Shown in pieces: positions 18,530-44,082 of a DNA stretch of 64,000 nucleotides. Each line of letters opens with the position of its first letter. The stretch's first letter is position 1. The position numbers and the translations under genes are program-made. The notes below the pieces were generated by a model. The model made no database searches. It was not told the DNA's origin and worked only from the letters and a program-made list of their open reading frames with translations. Source of the stretch: an uncultured delta proteobacterium (lineage in GTDB: Bacteria; Myxococcota_A; Polyangia; Haliangiales; Haliangiaceae). Where the stretch lies: NCBI GenBank assembly GCA_963848295.1, contig CAWKDB010000002.1, positions 448,001 through 512,000 on the forward strand. The letters are read 5' to 3'.

Positions 18530-29866
<11,337 letters not shown>

Positions 29867-30041: not shown

Positions 30042-33000
30042 ATGAGTGGGGTCGAAAAAACGCATCGCCCGGAGCGCGAGTTGGCGGAACGAGATCCGGC
30101 GACCCCGGTCGCGCGAGCCAAGCCCACGCCGACCGCGAGCGCGGACGACACGAGCGGGCAACAAGCGCGGCTATGGCGCGAGCTCGGCGCGTCGCGGGCG
30201 CCTCGCGATCAAGAGGATGCAGCGAACCTCGCGGTCGAGCACCGCGGGAGCGGCCGAGGAGTCGATCCCGGGATCGCCGGCAAGGTCGGCGCGCACATGG
30301 GCGCGAACCTCGATGGCGTACGCGTGCACAGCGATCCGCTGTCGCAGCAGTCGACCCGGGCGATGGGAGCCCGCGCGTTCGCTTATGGCAACGACGTGTT
30401 CCTAGGTCCCGGCGAATCGCCGGCCGACACCGGGTTGATGGCCCACGAGCTCGCGCACGTCGCCCAGCAGCGCGGTGGCGCAGCGACGCCGCAGATGAAG
30501 ATCTCGATCGGCGGCGTCCTCGATGCCGCGGAGGCCGAGGCCGATGCGATCGCCGCGAAGGTCGTCGGCGGCACGCAGGCCGTCGTCGACGTACTGTCCG
30601 ATGGCGGCGCGCTCAACCCCGGCCAGCTGGTCAAGCAGGCGTTCCTCGCGCAGCTAAAGCCGCTCGTCGTCGCCGCTGCGGATCAAGAGCTTGGCAAGGC
30701 GGGCGCCGCGGAGGGCTGCCCGTACATCGAGACCTACTTCGCGAAATACAGCGCGATGCCGGCGGCGCAGACCCTTGCCCTGCTCCGCAAGTGGATCCCT
30801 TCCGCGGCTTCGGTCACGTCGGCGACCGACCTCGTCCCGATGGTGGTCGCGCGCGTTCGCTCCGGGATCAAGACGTGGAAGGAGACCGGCGCGCTGCCGC
30901 CGGAGCTCGCCGCGGCCGATCCCGGCATCGCCGCCGCAGCGCGGGCGTCATCTACGCCGGGCGCACCGACGGCGCAGCGCAAGTCCCTCGATGCGCTCGA
31001 ATCGGATCTCGGCGCCGGCGAGGCCGTCGACAGCAAGCTCGCCGGGCCCCTCGGCGCGCAGGGCGCCCGCATCCATCGCGGGCCGGTCGCGGCGCAGCAC
31101 GCCAGAGCCGAGAACGCGGTCGCGTTCGCGGTCGGCCAGAACGTCGTCATGGGCGCGGGCGCGCCGCAGCAGGGAACGCCCGCCGGTGACGCGTTGCTCG
31201 CCCACGAGCTCGCGCATACGGCGCAGCAAAAAGACGCAGCCGGCGATGCGACTGCTCGCATGAAGCCAATCGGCGCCGAGGATCACGGCGCCGAGCGCGA
31301 TGCCGACCGCGCCGCGAGCGGAGCGATCTCGGGCCAGCGCGTCGCCACGCTCGGCAACTTCGCAGGCGCGATCGGCGACGTCATGCGGACCGGGCTCCAG
31401 CTCCAGCGCTGCGCGAGCGACACGAGCGTCGATCGATTCGCGTACTACAAGAAGTACGAGATCGACATCGCCAACGATGCGGCGTCGACGATCCGCCAGA
31501 TGCCGTTCGGCACGACCGACAGCACGATCGCTTGGTCGGGCGGCGGCCAAAAAGCGTTCGCCGGTCACCTCGCCGATCAAGTCGCGGCGCCGTCGACCGC
31601 AGCTTCACTCGAAGCGCTGGTCAGGCCCGAGCGGATGAGCTCGCTGATCGACTCGTCGCGGTTGCTGAACGAAGCAGGCTCCGCGAAGGGGCCCGATCAA
31701 TACTTCCACGCGGTCGGCGTCGAGGTCGCGAACGCCCTGGCCCGCCGAACCGCGGAGTCTTTAGGGCGCGAGCTGCCGCGCTACGCGCAGGCGAAGCTGG
31801 CCGGCGGCGGCGAGCCGAAGGCCGACTCGATCGCGGTGTCGCACCCGATCGATCCGCTCGTCGTCAGCGCCCTCACGATGGCGCCGATCGTCACGATCGA
31901 CGGCGCTGGATTCCGGAGCGCTCACCCCGAGCTTGCGGGCGCGCCGCGCCACATCGATCAGACGCGCAACGTCGTCACCGAAAAGGTCGGAGAGACTGGC
32001 ATGTGGTACCGGCTCAAGGAGCCGATGGATGCGACCGTCGAGGAGATCGCGAACGCGCTGCTCGGCGCGCCGACCGAGGCGTACCGAGTCACGAACGCGC
32101 ACCCGCTGTACGGCGTCGACAAGCAGAACAACGACGAGTTCTATGGCAGCCCCGGCACGTCGAGCGCGGCTAACCAGCTGCTCGTCAACGAGCCGACGCT
32201 ACGCGACGAGGCCGCGTTGTCGCAGGCCGGCGGCGGAAAACCCTCGCGGTCGGGCGCGAAGATCCTCGAGCAGATGCGCCTCAACGCGACGCTGCTCGGC
32301 AAGTCGATCTACGGCAATGCGATCAAGTTTGGGCCCGACGTCGCCGATGTCTTGGTCGCCGCAGCCCAGCGGATCAACGACCGCGCGGCCCAACTCTCGC
32401 TCGCGAAAGAGCCGGATATCCAGAAGTGGGATGCGCAGGTCACCCAGCAGCAAGATCTGCTCGGCAAGGGTTCGCGCGGGTTGCAGGCCGACGTGCTCCG
32501 CCTCCAGATGTACGCGACCCAATTCGACACCAAGCTTGGCGAGGACCCGGGCGCGAACAAGTTGCCCGACGAACATCGCAACGCGCTTCACGAGGACGTA
32601 TCGCTGTGGTGCCAGGCGCTCGCCATGACCGACATGGTGGCGAGCGCGACCGCCGCATTGCAGACCGCGGCGCGGCATTCGGCGACGCTCGAAACGCAGA
32701 TCCTCGAGCGCCAGCTCGATATCGCGCAGAGTGCGAGCTACGCCGCAAAAGATTCGGGCACGACAAAGTCCGACACCAACGTCGACTCGCTGCCGTCGCG
32801 CGAGCTCGAGGCGCGGCAGAAGCTCGCGGCGGTCCGGGCTCAGGCGCTCACCGATCCGTCCGCGATGACCGACCCGAAGACGATCGCGCTCAACGCCGAC
32901 GCCAGCCAGAACGCGCGCGACCTGGTGTTCGAGTCCTCGGTGATCGCGCAGGCCGCGCAGCTCGATGCCGCGTGGAAGATGCTCGACGATATGGACGGCA

Positions 33001-36000
33001 CGCTGTCTAACCTGACCGGTGATCACGGCGACCTCGCCGCCCTGAAGAGCGAGGGCAAGCGCTACTACGTCCGGTGGACCAACATCTACAGCCAGATCAC
33101 GAAGATCCCGCGAGACCCGGCGGCCGCGAAGACCGCGAAGGCGAACGCGCGCCAGGACTACGAGAAGCTGGTCGCGACCCCCGACTTCCAGACGTTCATG
33201 AACCGCGTGCAGACGCTGGTCAAGGACACCCAGAAGCACCATCTGATCGCGACGATCATCGCGACCGTCGTCATCACGGTCGTGACGATGGGAGCCGGCC
33301 TCGTCGTCGAGGGCCTCGTCGGCGGCGGCGCGGTCGCGGCCGAGGTGGCCGATGGCGTCGAGGTCACGACCGAGGTCGCGTCGGCCGCGCGCAATGCGCG
33401 CATCGCCGGGATGGTCGCGAACGCGGCGACCGGCGCCGTCCTCAACCAGCTCATCTTCGCGAAGTCCGTGACGATCAAGGGCATCGCCGCCGACTTCGGC
33501 CGCAACATGCTGCTGTTCGGCGCATTCAAGATGGTGTCGGCTGGCTTCAAGATGGCGGGGCTCGCCAAGATCGCGGAGGCCGGCCTCAAGCCGGGCGCGA
33601 CCGCTGCCGACGTCATGAAGGGCGGCGGCGTGATGATCGGAGAGGCCGTGCTCAACGGCGGCGTCGGCGCACTCGAGGCGCTGTGCGAGGCGAAGCTGAG
33701 CCAGGCGATGGGTGGCAAGCCGCTCACCCAGGAGGAGGCCGAATCGATCGTCCTGCACAACGTCGTGCAGATGGTCGGGCTCGCGATGTTCTCGCGGTTC
33801 ATGAACTCGCCGATGCAGGCGCTCAAGATCAAGGCCGCGTTCCAGGGGCAAAACTGGCGACGCGCGGTCGCGCTGCGCAGCGCGAACCGGTCCGCGATGA
33901 CGGCGCTCGGCGCCGGCGAGCATACGTCGACCGAGATCGTCGCCGCCGCGAAGAAAGAGTCTCAGCTGATCGAGGTCGAGACCCAAGCGCTCGAGGAGCT
34001 CAAGGCGCAGGGCGACAAGGCGCTCGAGGGCACCGGCTACACCGAGGCACGACTAGACGGTCAGATCGCGACCCTCAAGGGCTATGGCGCCAAGGCGCGC
34101 GGCTTCCAGTTCGCGTTCGGGATGACGGAGGTCGGCGACGGCCTCTACACCGCGCCGCGAGCGCAGGTCGCGGACATGATGAACGCCCAGGCTGGCATCC
34201 TCGAGAAACCACCGACGGTCGAGAGCAAGGACCCGAGCACGGGCGCGCGCACGTGGGTCTTGCAGCCGAAAGACGGCGACGCGTTCCGGGTCCAGGAAGA
34301 GATGCCGGAGTGGAGCTACAAGACCGCCGCCGGCAAGGAGCTCGTGCAGGTCATCGAGCGCAACCCGGGCATGGCGTGGGTGTTCGAGGCGCCGCAGGCA
34401 CAGATCGACGCGATGGTCGACTACCAGCGCACGCTGTCGACGAACGATCCCAAAGCGGTGGCCGCAGCCGACCAACGGCTAAGCAAGGCCATCACGAAGA
34501 ACCAATTCGAGGAGGTCTCCGCCGCGATCAAGGCGTTCGCGAGGTGGCAGAGCGCCGCCGACCAAGCCGACGAACGCCAGGCGCTGATCGACGGCAAGCC
34601 GCTCGACGCCGCCCAACGCGAGCACCTCGAGGCCGAGCTTCGCCGCCAGGTGCCGGACATCCGGCTCATGGACGCCGTGCAGAACCGCGGCGCGAAGACG
34701 GTGCTGTCGGTGTTGGTGCCGGGCGGCGGAGAGTCCGGCATCAAGGCAATGAACGACGACATGATCGGCTACGGCATGAACTCCGGCTCTCTGATCCCGG
34801 CGCGCAATCGGATCATCAGCGACGCGTTCTCGCGCCAGGGCTTCGAGATCGTCGATCAGGGCTACAAGATGACGACGCTCACGACGACGATGCCGGCCGA
34901 GCAGACCGCAGGAAAGATCAGGATCGCGCTCGCCGAGATCGATCAGGGCATGAAGCCGCTGCTGATGAGGGTGCTCGGGGACGGCATCGCGCACTTCACC
35001 GTCGAGAAGTCCCAGCTCTCGCCGAAGGATCCGAACTACGCGGTGTACGAGAAGCGAATCGCGAAGATGACCGCACTCCGCGCGAAGATCGCGTCGAATC
35101 CAGACTTTCACTTCGATTTCCATATCGGCGAGTCCGAGATCGCCGGCGCGGGGCCGGGCCAGAAGCCCGACTACGCCGCCGTGCTCGCCGCCGAGATGGA
35201 TGCGTCTAAGGCCGCGATCATGGCACGCGACGCCAAGGTCACGAGTGGCCGAACGGCGGACACCGACGGGCGTGCGATGGTCTATTCGAAGGCGACGTTC
35301 ATCACGTTCTGCAAAGAGACGGTGGCGCTCAAGGCCAAGCTCGCCGGAGCGGAGCTCCCTTACGAAGGACGTGTGGTCCGCGTGTTCGCCGGTGACGGCG
35401 AGATCAATCACGACCTGCTCCGTGCGATCCGCAAGCAGTCGTACAAGGAGAAGCTCTCGGCTGCACAGTCCAAGATCCTCGAGGACCTCGGCCAGTACAT
35501 CACGCGGGTCAACTCGTTCGACTACGTGAAGCAGTTCACCGGTGACGAGGTCGCGAACCAGGGCACCGAGGTCGACGAGACCGCGGCGCTGATCAAGAAG
35601 CTGCAGAGCGGCGAGCCGATCGATCGCGACACGGCGGCGAAGATCGACCAGGTCCTACGTGGCTCGAACGGGATCGCGCAGCAGGATGCCGGCAGCGAGG
35701 CGCAGTACTTCGCGAAGGCTGCGAAGCTGCAGAACCGCATCGTGCTGAACGCGGACATCAAAGACATGGGCCTGGACCTGTTCGACGGCTACGCGAAGAC
35801 GATGGACAGCGTCGGCTCGGGCAAGGCGACCAACCTCGACGCCGCGTCGGCGTCGGCGAGTGACCCCATCGTCGAGTTCAAGCGCCACGCGTCGGAGGAC
35901 TTCGTGCGCTACTACAAGACCGACCTGATGACGAAGGCGCGCAACCTGGCGCAGCCTCGAGAAGACGGCCGCGTGCTGCTCGACGCGCTCGACCGCGAGA

Positions 36001-36446
36001 CCGAGCCGGTGCTGCTGCTCGGTGGTGACGAGGTCACCGTCTCGCTCGGCAGCGTATTCGAGGAGCTCGGTCTGGTACCGGAGATCGTCGCGAAGCTGAC
36101 CGATCCGAAGGTCGCGAACGCACGCGTCGCGGTGACTCGTACCGGCGCGGGCGACGGCGCGGCCGAGCACGAGTTGGCGATGGACCGCGGCAACGCGGGC
36201 CAGGGCCTGCTCAAGAAGACCGCCGAGCCTTACGCGCGCAGCCTCGACACCGCCGCGAAGTCGCTGTCCGGCGATCAGGCGGCACAGGCGCATGCGCTGG
36301 TCGACCTGTTCAATGGCATGTACACGGTCGAGCAAGATGGCCAACCCGTGCTCGTCGACAAGACCGGTACTCCGGTCGACTGGCCGGCAGTCCAGAAGCG
36401 CGCTGCAGGACTCATCAAGGCCGGCGGCGGCGAGGTGCCGCATTGA
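30042..36446 (+). CDS. Large DUF4157 (eCIS core domain) protein; putative polymorphic toxin with C-terminal GGDEF/Cas10-like Palm region
   Basis: ATG at 30042 after GGGAG; two DUF4157 motifs (VRVHSD...GARAFAYGNDVF...LMAHELAHVAQQ and ARIHRG...AVAFAVGQNVV...LLAHELAHTAQQ); hydrophobic segment near 33240-33480; LNADIKDMG and LLLGGDEV near the C-terminus. Confidence 0.88.
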   Translation: MSGVEKTHRPERELAERDPATPVARAKPTPTASADDTSGQQARLWRELGASRAPRDQEDAANLAVEHRGSGRGVDPGIAGKVGAHMGANLDGVRVHSDPLSQQSTRAMGARAFAYGNDVFLGPGESPADTGLMAHELAHVAQQRGGAATPQMKISIGGVLDAAEAEADAIAAKVVGGTQAVVDVLSDGGALNPGQLVKQAFLAQLKPLVVAAADQELGKAGAAEGCPYIETYFAKYSAMPAAQTLALLRKWIPSAASVTSATDLVPMVVARVRSGIKTWKETGALPPELAAADPGIAAAARASSTPGAPTAQRKSLDALESDLGAGEAVDSKLAGPLGAQGARIHRGPVAAQHARAENAVAFAVGQNVVMGAGAPQQGTPAGDALLAHELAHTAQQKDAAGDATARMKPIGAEDHGAERDADRAASGAISGQRVATLGNFAGAIGDVMRTGLQLQRCASDTSVDRFAYYKKYEIDIANDAASTIRQMPFGTTDSTIAWSGGGQKAFAGHLADQVAAPSTAASLEALVRPERMSSLIDSSRLLNEAGSAKGPDQYFHAVGVEVANALARRTAESLGRELPRYAQAKLAGGGEPKADSIAVSHPIDPLVVSALTMAPIVTIDGAGFRSAHPELAGAPRHIDQTRNVVTEKVGETGMWYRLKEPMDATVEEIANALLGAPTEAYRVTNAHPLYGVDKQNNDEFYGSPGTSSAANQLLVNEPTLRDEAALSQAGGGKPSRSGAKILEQMRLNATLLGKSIYGNAIKFGPDVADVLVAAAQRINDRAAQLSLAKEPDIQKWDAQVTQQQDLLGKGSRGLQADVLRLQMYATQFDTKLGEDPGANKLPDEHRNALHEDVSLWCQALAMTDMVASATAALQTAARHSATLETQILERQLDIAQSASYAAKDSGTTKSDTNVDSLPSRELEARQKLAAVRAQALTDPSAMTDPKTIALNADASQNARDLVFESSVIAQAAQLDAAWKMLDDMDGTLSNLTGDHGDLAALKSEGKRYYVRWTNIYSQITKIPRDPAAAKTAKANARQDYEKLVATPDFQTFMNRVQTLVKDTQKHHLIATIIATVVITVVTMGAGLVVEGLVGGGAVAAEVADGVEVTTEVASAARNARIAGMVANAATGAVLNQLIFAKSVTIKGIAADFGRNMLLFGAFKMVSAGFKMAGLAKIAEAGLKPGATAADVMKGGGVMIGEAVLNGGVGALEALCEAKLSQAMGGKPLTQEEAESIVLHNVVQMVGLAMFSRFMNSPMQALKIKAAFQGQNWRRAVALRSANRSAMTALGAGEHTSTEIVAAAKKESQLIEVETQALEELKAQGDKALEGTGYTEARLDGQIATLKGYGAKARGFQFAFGMTEVGDGLYTAPRAQVADMMNAQAGILEKPPTVESKDPSTGARTWVLQPKDGDAFRVQEEMPEWSYKTAAGKELVQVIERNPGMAWVFEAPQAQIDAMVDYQRTLSTNDPKAVAAADQRLSKAITKNQFEEVSAAIKAFARWQSAADQADERQALIDGKPLDAAQREHLEAELRRQVPDIRLMDAVQNRGAKTVLSVLVPGGGESGIKAMNDDMIGYGMNSGSLIPARNRIISDAFSRQGFEIVDQGYKMTTLTTTMPAEQTAGKIRIALAEIDQGMKPLLMRVLGDGIAHFTVEKSQLSPKDPNYAVYEKRIAKMTALRAKIASNPDFHFDFHIGESEIAGAGPGQKPDYAAVLAAEMDASKAAIMARDAKVTSGRTADTDGRAMVYSKATFITFCKETVALKAKLAGAELPYEGRVVRVFAGDGEINHDLLRAIRKQSYKEKLSAAQSKILEDLGQYITRVNSFDYVKQFTGDEVANQGTEVDETAALIKKLQSGEPIDRDTAAKIDQVLRGSNGIAQQDAGSEAQYFAKAAKLQNRIVLNADIKDMGLDLFDGYAKTMDSVGSGKATNLDAASASASDPIVEFKRHASEDFVRYYKTDLMTKARNLAQPREDGRVLLDALDRETEPVLLLGGDEVTVSLGSVFEELGLVPEIVAKLTDPKVANARVAVTRTGAGDGAAEHELAMDRGNAGQGLLKKTAEPYARSLDTAAKSLSGDQAAQAHALVDLFNGMYTVEQDGQPVLVDKTGTPVDWPAVQKRAAGLIKAGGGEVPH

Positions 36447-37021
36447 TGTTGCCGACCACGTCCGAGCTCGACGCGATGCTGCAGCGCTACTTCATCGGCG
36501 CCACGCCCGCGCACGCGGCCGCACTGCTCGTCGACCTCGAGAAGGTGCTCGGCGATCCGGCTCGCCACGCGGGCGAAGCCGGTAGCTTCGATCCCGCCAA
36601 CGGCGGCAGGTGCTACGGCCAGGCCTGGCGCGAGGAGCTGGCGTACGACCACCGGCGGCCGAACGAGCTCGAGATGGCGGCGTGGCTCGCGGCGACGTCG
36701 AAGGGCTATCCCGCGCCGCGGCCCTATTGCCCCGAGGTGTTCGTCGGCGCTTGGCGCCAGATCGAGCCGGTCGTGGAGCCCGCGCCGCGCTGGGAGCTCG
36801 CGCTCGACGGCGGGTTCAAGACGGACGAGCAGATGTTGCGTATCCGCGAGGCTTGGTGCTTGCACCGCGAAGGCCACGAGTCGTTCGTCGGCGACGCGAT
36901 CTGGCTCTACGACAACATGCGCGTCGGTCATCGGATCTTGGCGGTGCTCGGGATAGCGCCAGGCTCCCTCGAGGTGCATGCGTCGGGAGCGCGATCCTCG
37001 TATAAGCTCGTGAGGTCATGA
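36446..37021 (+). CDS. Hypothetical protein (191 aa), candidate immunity/partner protein
   Basis: ATG overlaps the stop of the DUF4157 gene (TGATG), preceded by GAGG; no family recognised. Confidence 0.75.
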   Translation: MLPTTSELDAMLQRYFIGATPAHAAALLVDLEKVLGDPARHAGEAGSFDPANGGRCYGQAWREELAYDHRRPNELEMAAWLAATSKGYPAPRPYCPEVFVGAWRQIEPVVEPAPRWELALDGGFKTDEQMLRIREAWCLHREGHESFVGDAIWLYDNMRVGHRILAVLGIAPGSLEVHASGARSSYKLVRS

Positions 37022-37308
37022 CCGTGCAGCAGATCCGGGCGCTCGGATTCGAGTGGCCCGGCAACGAGTCACTCGATCAATACGCCGTGGACCGCGACGG
37101 CACCATCGATCTCGCAGCGACCCTCGAGGCGCTGCGCAAGGGTCTCGGTGTGTACCAGCGCCAGCTCGACGGAATGGCGCAGTTCAAAGGCCGCCACCGC
37201 CCCGACTCGAGCGACGTCGACGACAACGGCGAGGTGGCGCTCAAGGCAGCCGATATGCGCCAGGCGATCTCGATCGTCGAGCAGATTCGCGCGCGCGCTG
37301 GACGCTAG
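37018..37308 (+). CDS. Hypothetical small helical protein (96 aa), second candidate immunity/partner
   Basis: ATGA overlap with the previous gene, GAGG just upstream; GC3-rich codons; no family recognised. Confidence 0.7.
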   Translation: MTVQQIRALGFEWPGNESLDQYAVDRDGTIDLAATLEALRKGLGVYQRQLDGMAQFKGRHRPDSSDVDDNGEVALKAADMRQAISIVEQIRARAGR

Positions 37309-41580: not shown

Positions 41581-41688
41581 CGGCCTGCGGCAGCGCTGGC
41601 GACGGCTGGGTTGTCCACCGGGGCCATCTAGCAGCTCGACCACCTGGCCTGTGTCTTGGCTCCGCCGTTTCGGTATGATCACCGACCG

Positions 41689-44082
<2,394 letters not shown>

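Follow-up and report, generated by a model that had tools for sequence, protein, structure and literature searches.

The stretch of DNA analysed here, G000:C2:448001-512000 (64,000 nucleotides, hereafter the window; source genome G000, of a soil bacterium, 7.8 Mb and 85% complete), encodes a 2134-aa protein of the polymorphic-toxin type, P0001 (30042..36446, +; from ORF translation, domain scan and homology), followed directly by two small open reading frames (ORFs), ORF2 (P0002) and ORF3 (P0003). P0001 has the PVC/extracellular contractile injection system (eCIS) architecture of DUF4157 polymorphic toxins, that is, an N-terminal metallopeptidase motif and a constant N-terminus with exchangeable C-termini, and ORF2 travels with the C-terminal tip and not with the body. 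We consider it very probable that this module is a toxin-immunity system, and we lean, with appreciably less assurance, towards an eCIS-delivered antibacterial toxin whose two-palm, GGDEF-like tip would join free nucleotides and for which ORF2 would be the antidote. An original prediction, made from the letters of the window, had proposed an effector with a cyclase-like payload and an immunity gene; this reading is largely supported by the exchangeable C-terminus, the coupling of ORF2 and the palm fold, and is refined in two points, the single cyclase domain and the coupling of ORF3.

The exchangeable tip and the small genes downstream

The tip (residues 1501-2134, 634 aa; 34542..36443, +), a predicted tandem-palm nucleotidyltransferase, follows a carrier body (about residues 461-1493; 31422..34520, +) that is common to proteins ending in other tips and for which Pfam and PDB sequence searches gave no significant match. 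Same-body homology stops at residues 1420-1540 and same-tip homology begins at residues 1499-1503, both kinds breaking at a swap point near residue 1495 (L054, with a tip match and no body match, was left out of this comparison). The body was matched in 37 of 147 genomes of the order (tallies over this set include two unpublished genomes, G037 and G038; the loci come from other genomes), and 11 of the best body-matching loci were retrieved for reading of their tips. Six other tip types occur on the same body, one of them within G000 itself: among those read are an adenosine deaminase (L044), PRTase-CE (L046, and the related L045, which ends early), zeta-toxin (L048, L050 and L051) and a NAD/FAD-binding-like tip under cut-off (L047 and L049); the tips of L041 and L043 matched no family and the sequence of L042 stops before the tip. 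The same tip also stands on bodies, the longest of 4665 aa, that show weak or no relation to this one, in one case (L056) after an ART domain, and eCIS_core was present in 9 of the 16 long proteins scanned among its 139 phmmer hits. Its distribution is patchy (10 of the 147 genomes). A distinct C-terminal region had been noted beforehand, and it is indeed one that varies across homologues.

The paralog on contig C10 of G000 is 43% identical to P0001 over residues 1-1488 and then diverges. This protein (L069; G000:C10:4147202-4157308, -), itself double-DUF4157 and 2200 aa long, carries an HSHP..PSxxD motif, which we take to be JAB-like (no Pfam hit), and finishes in a fragment of a DDE transposase; behind it lie two paralogous genes of ~495 aa with weak kinase-domain hits. 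Several of the other-tip proteins among L044 (adenosine/AMP-deaminase-like), L046 and L047-L051 have a small downstream gene of their own.

ORF2 (191 aa; 36446-37021, +), whose start overlaps the stop of P0001 as TGATG, was found at 24 of 27 other tip loci (11 from genomes, 16 from metagenomes) with a hidden Markov model that 17 of these loci had helped to build, and at 22 of the 27 in a BLAST search with P0002 as sole query. Where present, ORF2 directly follows the tip, with two exceptions: at L019 another tip and a gene lie between, and at L021 ORF2 and the tip share one frame. ORF2 was not found at L008, L028 or the clade B locus L011 (L011/L072). All nine ORF2 matches outside G000 in the 147 genomes adjoin a tip, and none of 12 loci with the same body and another tip, 10 of them informative, has ORF2. 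Joint exchange of C-termini and downstream genes, a check named in the original prediction, is thereby observed for ORF2. Tandem ORF2 copies are present in L001 and in L056/L073; in the latter pair (L056:1319-19000, and L073) repeated ORF2-like genes, one of them fused to pentapeptide repeats, come after a DUF4157 protein of 4665 aa that combines an ART domain with the two-palm tip.

Structure prediction of the tip with ORF2 gave a complex score of 0.82, the best of three controls scoring 0.00; of 157 solved complexes 116 attain this mark, as do 2 of 215 mismatched pairs, counts that are only rough for the alignments used here. At least 87% of the contacts recur between runs, the predicted local distance difference test (pLDDT) value of the partner is at least 88, and the predicted interface, at the second palm of the tip, includes K1907, D1908, D1941 and R1948. 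ORF2 belongs to no known family (no NCBIfam or PADLOC match), its Atlas leads being lipocalin/staphostatin-like and below 0.9, and a PDB sequence search returned no solved relative of either tip or ORF2. ORF2 is thus predicted, from gene association and the modelled complex, to be the cognate immunity protein and to bind the tip at palm 2.

ORF3 (96 aa; 37018-37308, +), which overlaps the end of ORF2 as ATGA, has 45 other homologs and no NCBIfam or PADLOC match; one of these homologs is labelled Kofleriaceae, from which G000 is probably of Myxococcota lineage. We rejected it as an obligate partner of the tip, for it follows the tip at 8 of the 27 loci and two of its matches have no tip in their 3.2 kb loci; at L055 it forms a single protein of 700 aa together with an ORF2 domain. 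Of the two small genes originally thought coupled, ORF2 is coupled and ORF3 is loosely associated; the latter may be an optional extra, either a second immunity protein or an accessory one.

Predicted fold and divided active site

The tip gave no Pfam, NCBIfam or PADLOC match (Pfam including GGDEF PF00990 up to E 1), its profile search of PDB sequences returned nothing significant, and a viral fold library yielded no match at E 0.001 or better. A model built from an 88-row alignment (pLDDT 96.5, predicted template modelling score 0.93) was used in place of a single-sequence model (pLDDT 45), which was set aside. It consists of two palm domains (model residues ~30-250 and ~355-606), each aligning to GGDEF domains: palm 1 to that of SiaD, 7e6g (Z 10.5, root-mean-square deviation (rmsd) 3.1, 140 aligned), and palm 2 to that of DgcZ, 3tvk (Z 10.4, rmsd 2.5, 150 aligned). 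GGDEF domains fill most top rows of the comparison, with mCpol (9mnr; Z 9.6, rmsd 3.0, 113 aligned) and single domains of class III cyclases (Z 9.0-9.3) within about 1-1.5 Z of them. Soluble adenylyl cyclase (sAC), GTP cyclohydrolase III (GCH-III) and Cas10 align across both palms, loosely (Z 7.7-8.8, rmsd 8-17; for Cas10 6ifk, Z 7.9, rmsd 8.4, 256 aligned), and the top Foldseek hits are Cmr2/Cas10 (E about 1e-3, TM 0.17-0.19). Comparison of palm 1 with palm 2 by hhalign found no similarity. The Atlas feature leads for the tip, GCH-III (0.80, within the range of shuffled proteins), GGDEF and mCpol, all lie below 0.9. The model thus gives good support to a palm fold, but these comparisons do not single out a nearest family among palm enzymes. 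The palm-fold nucleotidyl cyclase or polymerase payload of the original prediction has thus found support in structure matches to GGDEF, Cas10 and cyclases, in the form of a tandem two-palm unit with a split site and not of a single cyclase domain. Membership of a described family was considered and rejected in two cases: as a canonical GGDEF member, given that the tip has no Pfam hit and its motifs are divided between two palms, and as a Cas10/mCpol member, given the absence of Pfam, NCBIfam and PADLOC hits, a GGDE in place of GGDD and no CRISPR or Panoptes neighbours among the ORFs scanned.

Conservation was counted over 93 rows, the query plus phmmer hits; locus translations, many of them duplicates, were left out. 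As few as 26 of 625 positions reach 90% conservation, and these are mostly motif residues. Palm 1 (about residues 1530-1750; 34629..35291, +) carries K1568-x-x-N1571-D1572-x3-G1576, K1609 and R1729 (K1568 91/91, N1571 93/93, D1572 87/90, G1576 89/93, K1609 83/93) and lacks both the metal Asp and GGDE. Palm 2 (about residues 1869-2106; 35646..36359, +) carries D1905-x-x-D1908-x-G1910, D1941, the GGDE of residues 1994-1997 (36021-36032, +), R2028, H2043, K2058 and E2062, and lacks K-x-x-N-D; here D1905 and G1910 are kept in 93/93, D1908 in 90/93, D1941 in 84/93 and K2058 in 90/90, and GGDE in 92/93 relatives (92-93/93 per residue; D1996 and E1997 each 92/93). A further invariant set lies outside the GGDEF motifs (R1797 93/93, K1798 90/93, N1824 92/93, D1827 93/93, R2028 92/92). 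The first Asp and the two Lys likewise have roles in GGDEF enzymes. Palm 2 thus keeps the metal Asp, GGDE and the base-reading Asp and palm 1 only K-x-x-N-D, a division that suggests a single, directional nucleotide-joining site in which palm 1 would be the acceptor half-site and palm 2 the donor and metal half-site. In GGDEF enzymes, according to PMC6456294, an Asn and a Ser or Asp read the base (Ser permitting G or A in Hypr GGDEF enzymes), the GGDEF Asp binds Mg, and the Glu that follows it deprotonates the nucleotide held by the other monomer; a donor/acceptor asymmetry is described for Cas10 in PMC12657230.

The wider family was arranged in a tree of 113 rows, those of 164 aligned sequences that cover at least 65% of the profile, which resolves three clades of 48, 26 and 39 rows (FastTree support 0.998, 0.998 and 0.99); the tree is midpoint-rooted and we therefore claim no direction of origin. 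Clades B and C (median lengths 801 and 699 aa, forms of 611-1271 aa) both retain the motifs, with K-x-x-N-D..G..D of palm 1 in 34 of 39 clade C rows; the base reader of palm 2 is G-D. The gene neighbourhood was read for one clade B locus. Two of nine clade C clusters looked up are labelled Patescibacteria, the others being without lineage. P0062, P0071 and clade C are ~700-aa standalone relatives with GGDEF-like Asp readers in both palms, and P0078, of clade B, is fused behind a VanY D-Ala-D-Ala carboxypeptidase domain. A phylum-wide sample returned a match in 2 of 401 genomes (two candidates scored per genome); phage records searched with P0062 and plasmid records searched with the tip returned none.

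Delivery, proposed mechanism and alternatives

An eCIS structural locus was identified in G000 by domain scan (L067/L068; G000:C2:901825-933515, -), with genes for Pvc16, two sheaths, two tubes, CIS tube, GPD, spike OB, gp25, baseplate J, AAA and DUF4157; it also spans an FHA-like gene (a label from the sequence), DUF1257 and a standalone DUF4157 gene. The type VI secretion protein VipB was not matched in G000 (85% complete). At L027 the tip gene stands directly after an AAA ATPase gene and before two DUF4157 genes, and the tip of L028 likewise follows an AAA gene. Delivery of P0001 by eCIS is likely on these grounds. Judged by Pvc16, eCIS looks near-core in this lineage; Pvc16 was not matched in the tip-bearing drafts G085 and G108.

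In the mechanism that we favour, the donor NTP would sit in palm 2, where D1941 would read its base (probably that of GTP) and D1905 and D1996 would bind Mg, and palm 1 would hold the acceptor nucleotide, read by N1571 and S1581. E1997 would deprotonate the acceptor 3'-OH and K1568 assist the transition state. Since both half-sites lie in a single chain, neither dimerisation nor sensor input should be needed, and the enzyme may run on arrival. Purine nucleotides would be the likely substrates and pppNpG-type dinucleotides, later cyclic di- or oligonucleotides, the products; the target would be harmed by the drain on GTP and ATP and by a flood of signal-like product, while in the producing cell and its kin the donor pocket would be closed off by ORF2.

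Several results weigh against this proposal. The toxin-clade loci L008 and L028 retain the motifs and have no adjacent ORF2, and the loci are not all independent, L016/L017 and L021/L030 being near-duplicates. A Z of ~10 is moderate, the comparison tool warning below Z ~13 for helical models, and the matches spanning both palms have an rmsd of 8-17 Å and a Foldseek TM of ~0.2, so that the relative pose of the palms is unconfirmed. No link to GGDEF was found at the sequence level, either by Pfam or by hhalign against a thin alignment of four GGDEF sequences (palm 1 E 0.057, palm 2 nothing). The residue equivalences to GGDEF enzymes rest on motif spacing, and S1581 adjoins an indel and varies (S12, N7, D6, A3 of 29 in the toxin clade). 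The eCIS locus is ~420 kb from P0001, and Pvc16 is present in 124 of the 147 genomes of the order, which makes co-presence of an eCIS weak evidence for delivery.

A bolder form of the proposal, which we think unlikely as a whole, takes the tip to represent an unrecognised enzyme family, a pseudo-heterodimer in one chain that descends from GGDEF enzymes, is constitutively active in the synthesis of cyclic di- or oligonucleotides and serves as an injected weapon; it would kill through the target's cyclic di-GMP circuits or through anti-phage suicide effectors (CBASS, type III CRISPR), and the ~700-aa Patescibacteria-labelled relatives would be host-directed versions in epibionts.

Class III cyclases have one metal site in two palms, an arrangement that the tip would fit, and within the same toxin-immunity system it might thus be a mononucleotide cyclase (cAMP, cGMP or cUMP), a C1/C2-like pseudo-heterodimer with one NTP at the palm interface. 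The human sAC structure 4clf spans both palms (Z 8.8, rmsd 8.5, 288 aligned) and single class III domains score close to GGDEF domains, as given above; GGDEF domains nonetheless take most of the top rows, the GGDEF-type base reader kept in both palms speaks for a pair of nucleotides, and the Glu in fourth place of GGDE, which is invariant, corresponds to the cross-dimer base of GGDEF enzymes. No Pfam profile of class III nucleotidyl cyclases matched the tip. We rate this cyclase as quite improbable, and give similarly little credence to a tip that transfers NMP from the palm 2 donor onto a macromolecule, for example a protein or the end of a tRNA or other RNA, and not onto a free nucleotide. 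A one-way site would suit such a transfer, and the invariant R1797, K1798, N1824, D1827 and R2028 could hold a larger acceptor; the same residues could equally hold the triphosphate of an acceptor nucleotide, because palm 1 has no metal ligands, and palm 1 retains a mononucleotide base-reading motif.

P0001 may also be no killing toxin at all and act as a delivered or cytoplasmic signalling enzyme with ORF2 as its regulator, a view that the shorter clade B and C forms with the same motifs, and the lack of ORF2 at the sole clade B locus read and at L008 and L028, would accommodate. It has slim odds in our estimation: the tip takes the place that deaminase, zeta-toxin or PRTase tips hold in other proteins, and it follows an ART domain in L056, ORF2 is tandemly duplicated or fused into multi-domain proteins, as is frequent for immunity genes, and the tip is patchily distributed. 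Hydrolysis of GTP in the manner of the two-palm GCH-III, killing by depletion with no joined product, is very unlikely, for although the alignment of 2qv6 takes in both palms (Z 8.8, 226 aligned) and the Atlas gives GCH-III as a lead, that match has an rmsd of 16.5, the Atlas score falls in the shuffled-protein range, and K-x-x-N-D and the Glu set belong to phosphodiester formation.

Gene layout and relation to known systems

The two eCIS_core (PF13699, DUF4157, PVC-metallopeptidase) stretches of P0001 lie at 30264..30479 and 31050..31238 (both +), above cut-off at E 5.7e-37, with both HExxHxxQ motifs intact (HELAHVAQQ at residue 135 and HELAHTAQQ at residue 388). A hydrophobic stretch at residues 1065-1106 (33234..33359, +; 19-residue Kyte-Doolittle maximum 2.34) may cross a membrane, and a second, weak one occupies residues 606-625. 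The frame is stop-free over 30042-36446 and open back to 29682; we took 30042 as the start because GGAG lies immediately 5' of it and the G000 paralog aligns from residue 1. GC content at third codon positions is 0.88 for P0001, 0.89 for ORF2 and 0.85 for ORF3, and the latter two have full-length homologs and are therefore no chance frames. Both flanking genes are on the minus strand, a tetratricopeptide repeat (TPR)-type gene ending at 29866 and a CcmE-domain ORF from 37385. All the elements of layout put forward originally, namely a long ORF with two DUF4157 motifs, its hydrophobic stretch, the two small ORFs joined by TGATG and ATGA and the oppositely oriented neighbours, are thus in place. 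The left flank (18530-29866, -; the TPR-type label was read off the sequence with no profile scan behind it) is very long and broken up into four or more overlapping ORFs whose frames differ, a pattern that points to frameshifts, possibly assembly indels; the P0001 ORF itself is intact. One DNA sequencing run, which may not be independent, covers the stretch in short pieces, one of which spans the P0001-ORF2 junction without differences. Promoter and terminator scans gave signals no better than chance. Elsewhere in the window (41656-44082, +) lies a hybrid kinase/receiver-type protein with a C-terminal GGDEF-like domain, AGDDF (from the sequence), which served as comparator and shows no link to the module.

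The PVC toxin architecture, an N-terminal metallopeptidase with a variable C-terminal domain, is defined in PMC3482391. With the DUF4157 toxins of that paper and of PMC8213781 and PMC11297309, P0001 has in common an N-terminal HExxHxxQ domain, a linker of >1000 aa, a variable tip and an eCIS locus in the genome; it differs in having two DUF4157 copies, a tip family present in no library scanned and a tight downstream partner, which many eCIS toxins lack according to these papers. The two eCIS papers (PMC8213781, PMC11297309) leave open whether eCIS target bacteria, kin included; the tight immunity link here suggests that the eCIS of this lineage do. The word 'GGDEF' is absent from the main text of all three papers, and 'cyclase' from that of PMC8213781 and PMC11297309, as available. 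We found no description in the literature searched of a GGDEF- or Cas10-type palm enzyme as a polymorphic-toxin warhead, an entry in a supplement being possible, and with no profile match for the tip either, the original view that this warhead type is not recognised among DUF4157 toxins still holds.

With GGDEF diguanylate cyclases and Hypr GGDEF cGAMP synthases (PMC6456294) the tip shares the palm fold (Z ~10 for each half), K-x-x-N-D..G, a base-reading Asp or Ser and a GG[DE]E hairpin. Those enzymes are symmetric homodimers, whereas the tip has both palms on a single chain and what is lost from one is kept in the other; it also has large helical insertions, D-x-x-D-[LM]-G as first motif, no sensor domain and no Pfam GGDEF hit, and is placed as a toxin tip. 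Cas10/Cmr2/Csm1, the cyclic oligoadenylate synthase, likewise has two palms in one chain and asymmetric donor and acceptor sites (probable ones in the tip; PMC12657230), and gives the best Foldseek hits; the tip differs in its GGDE, its GGDEF-type palm 1, and the absence of an HD domain match, of Cas genes in the loci read and of a PADLOC hit. The mCpol of Panoptes (PMC12657230) resembles the tip in its palm but forms a small homodimer and functions as an antitoxin. The secreted toxins that synthesise (p)ppApp or (p)ppGpp (PMC12691689) offer an analogy, being exported nucleotide-signal synthases that inhibit growth by overproduction, but these alarmone synthetases are of the RelA/SpoT family, whereas the tip has a palm fold and a different predicted chemistry. 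If active, the tip would bring a chemistry that is new among toxins, along with a new family of immunity proteins, and would be a naturally asymmetric GGDEF-like enzyme with separately mutable donor and acceptor sites and a possible source of a new nucleotide product. Against these known systems, the module is one of a known kind, with a warhead family and an immunity family that are apparently new.

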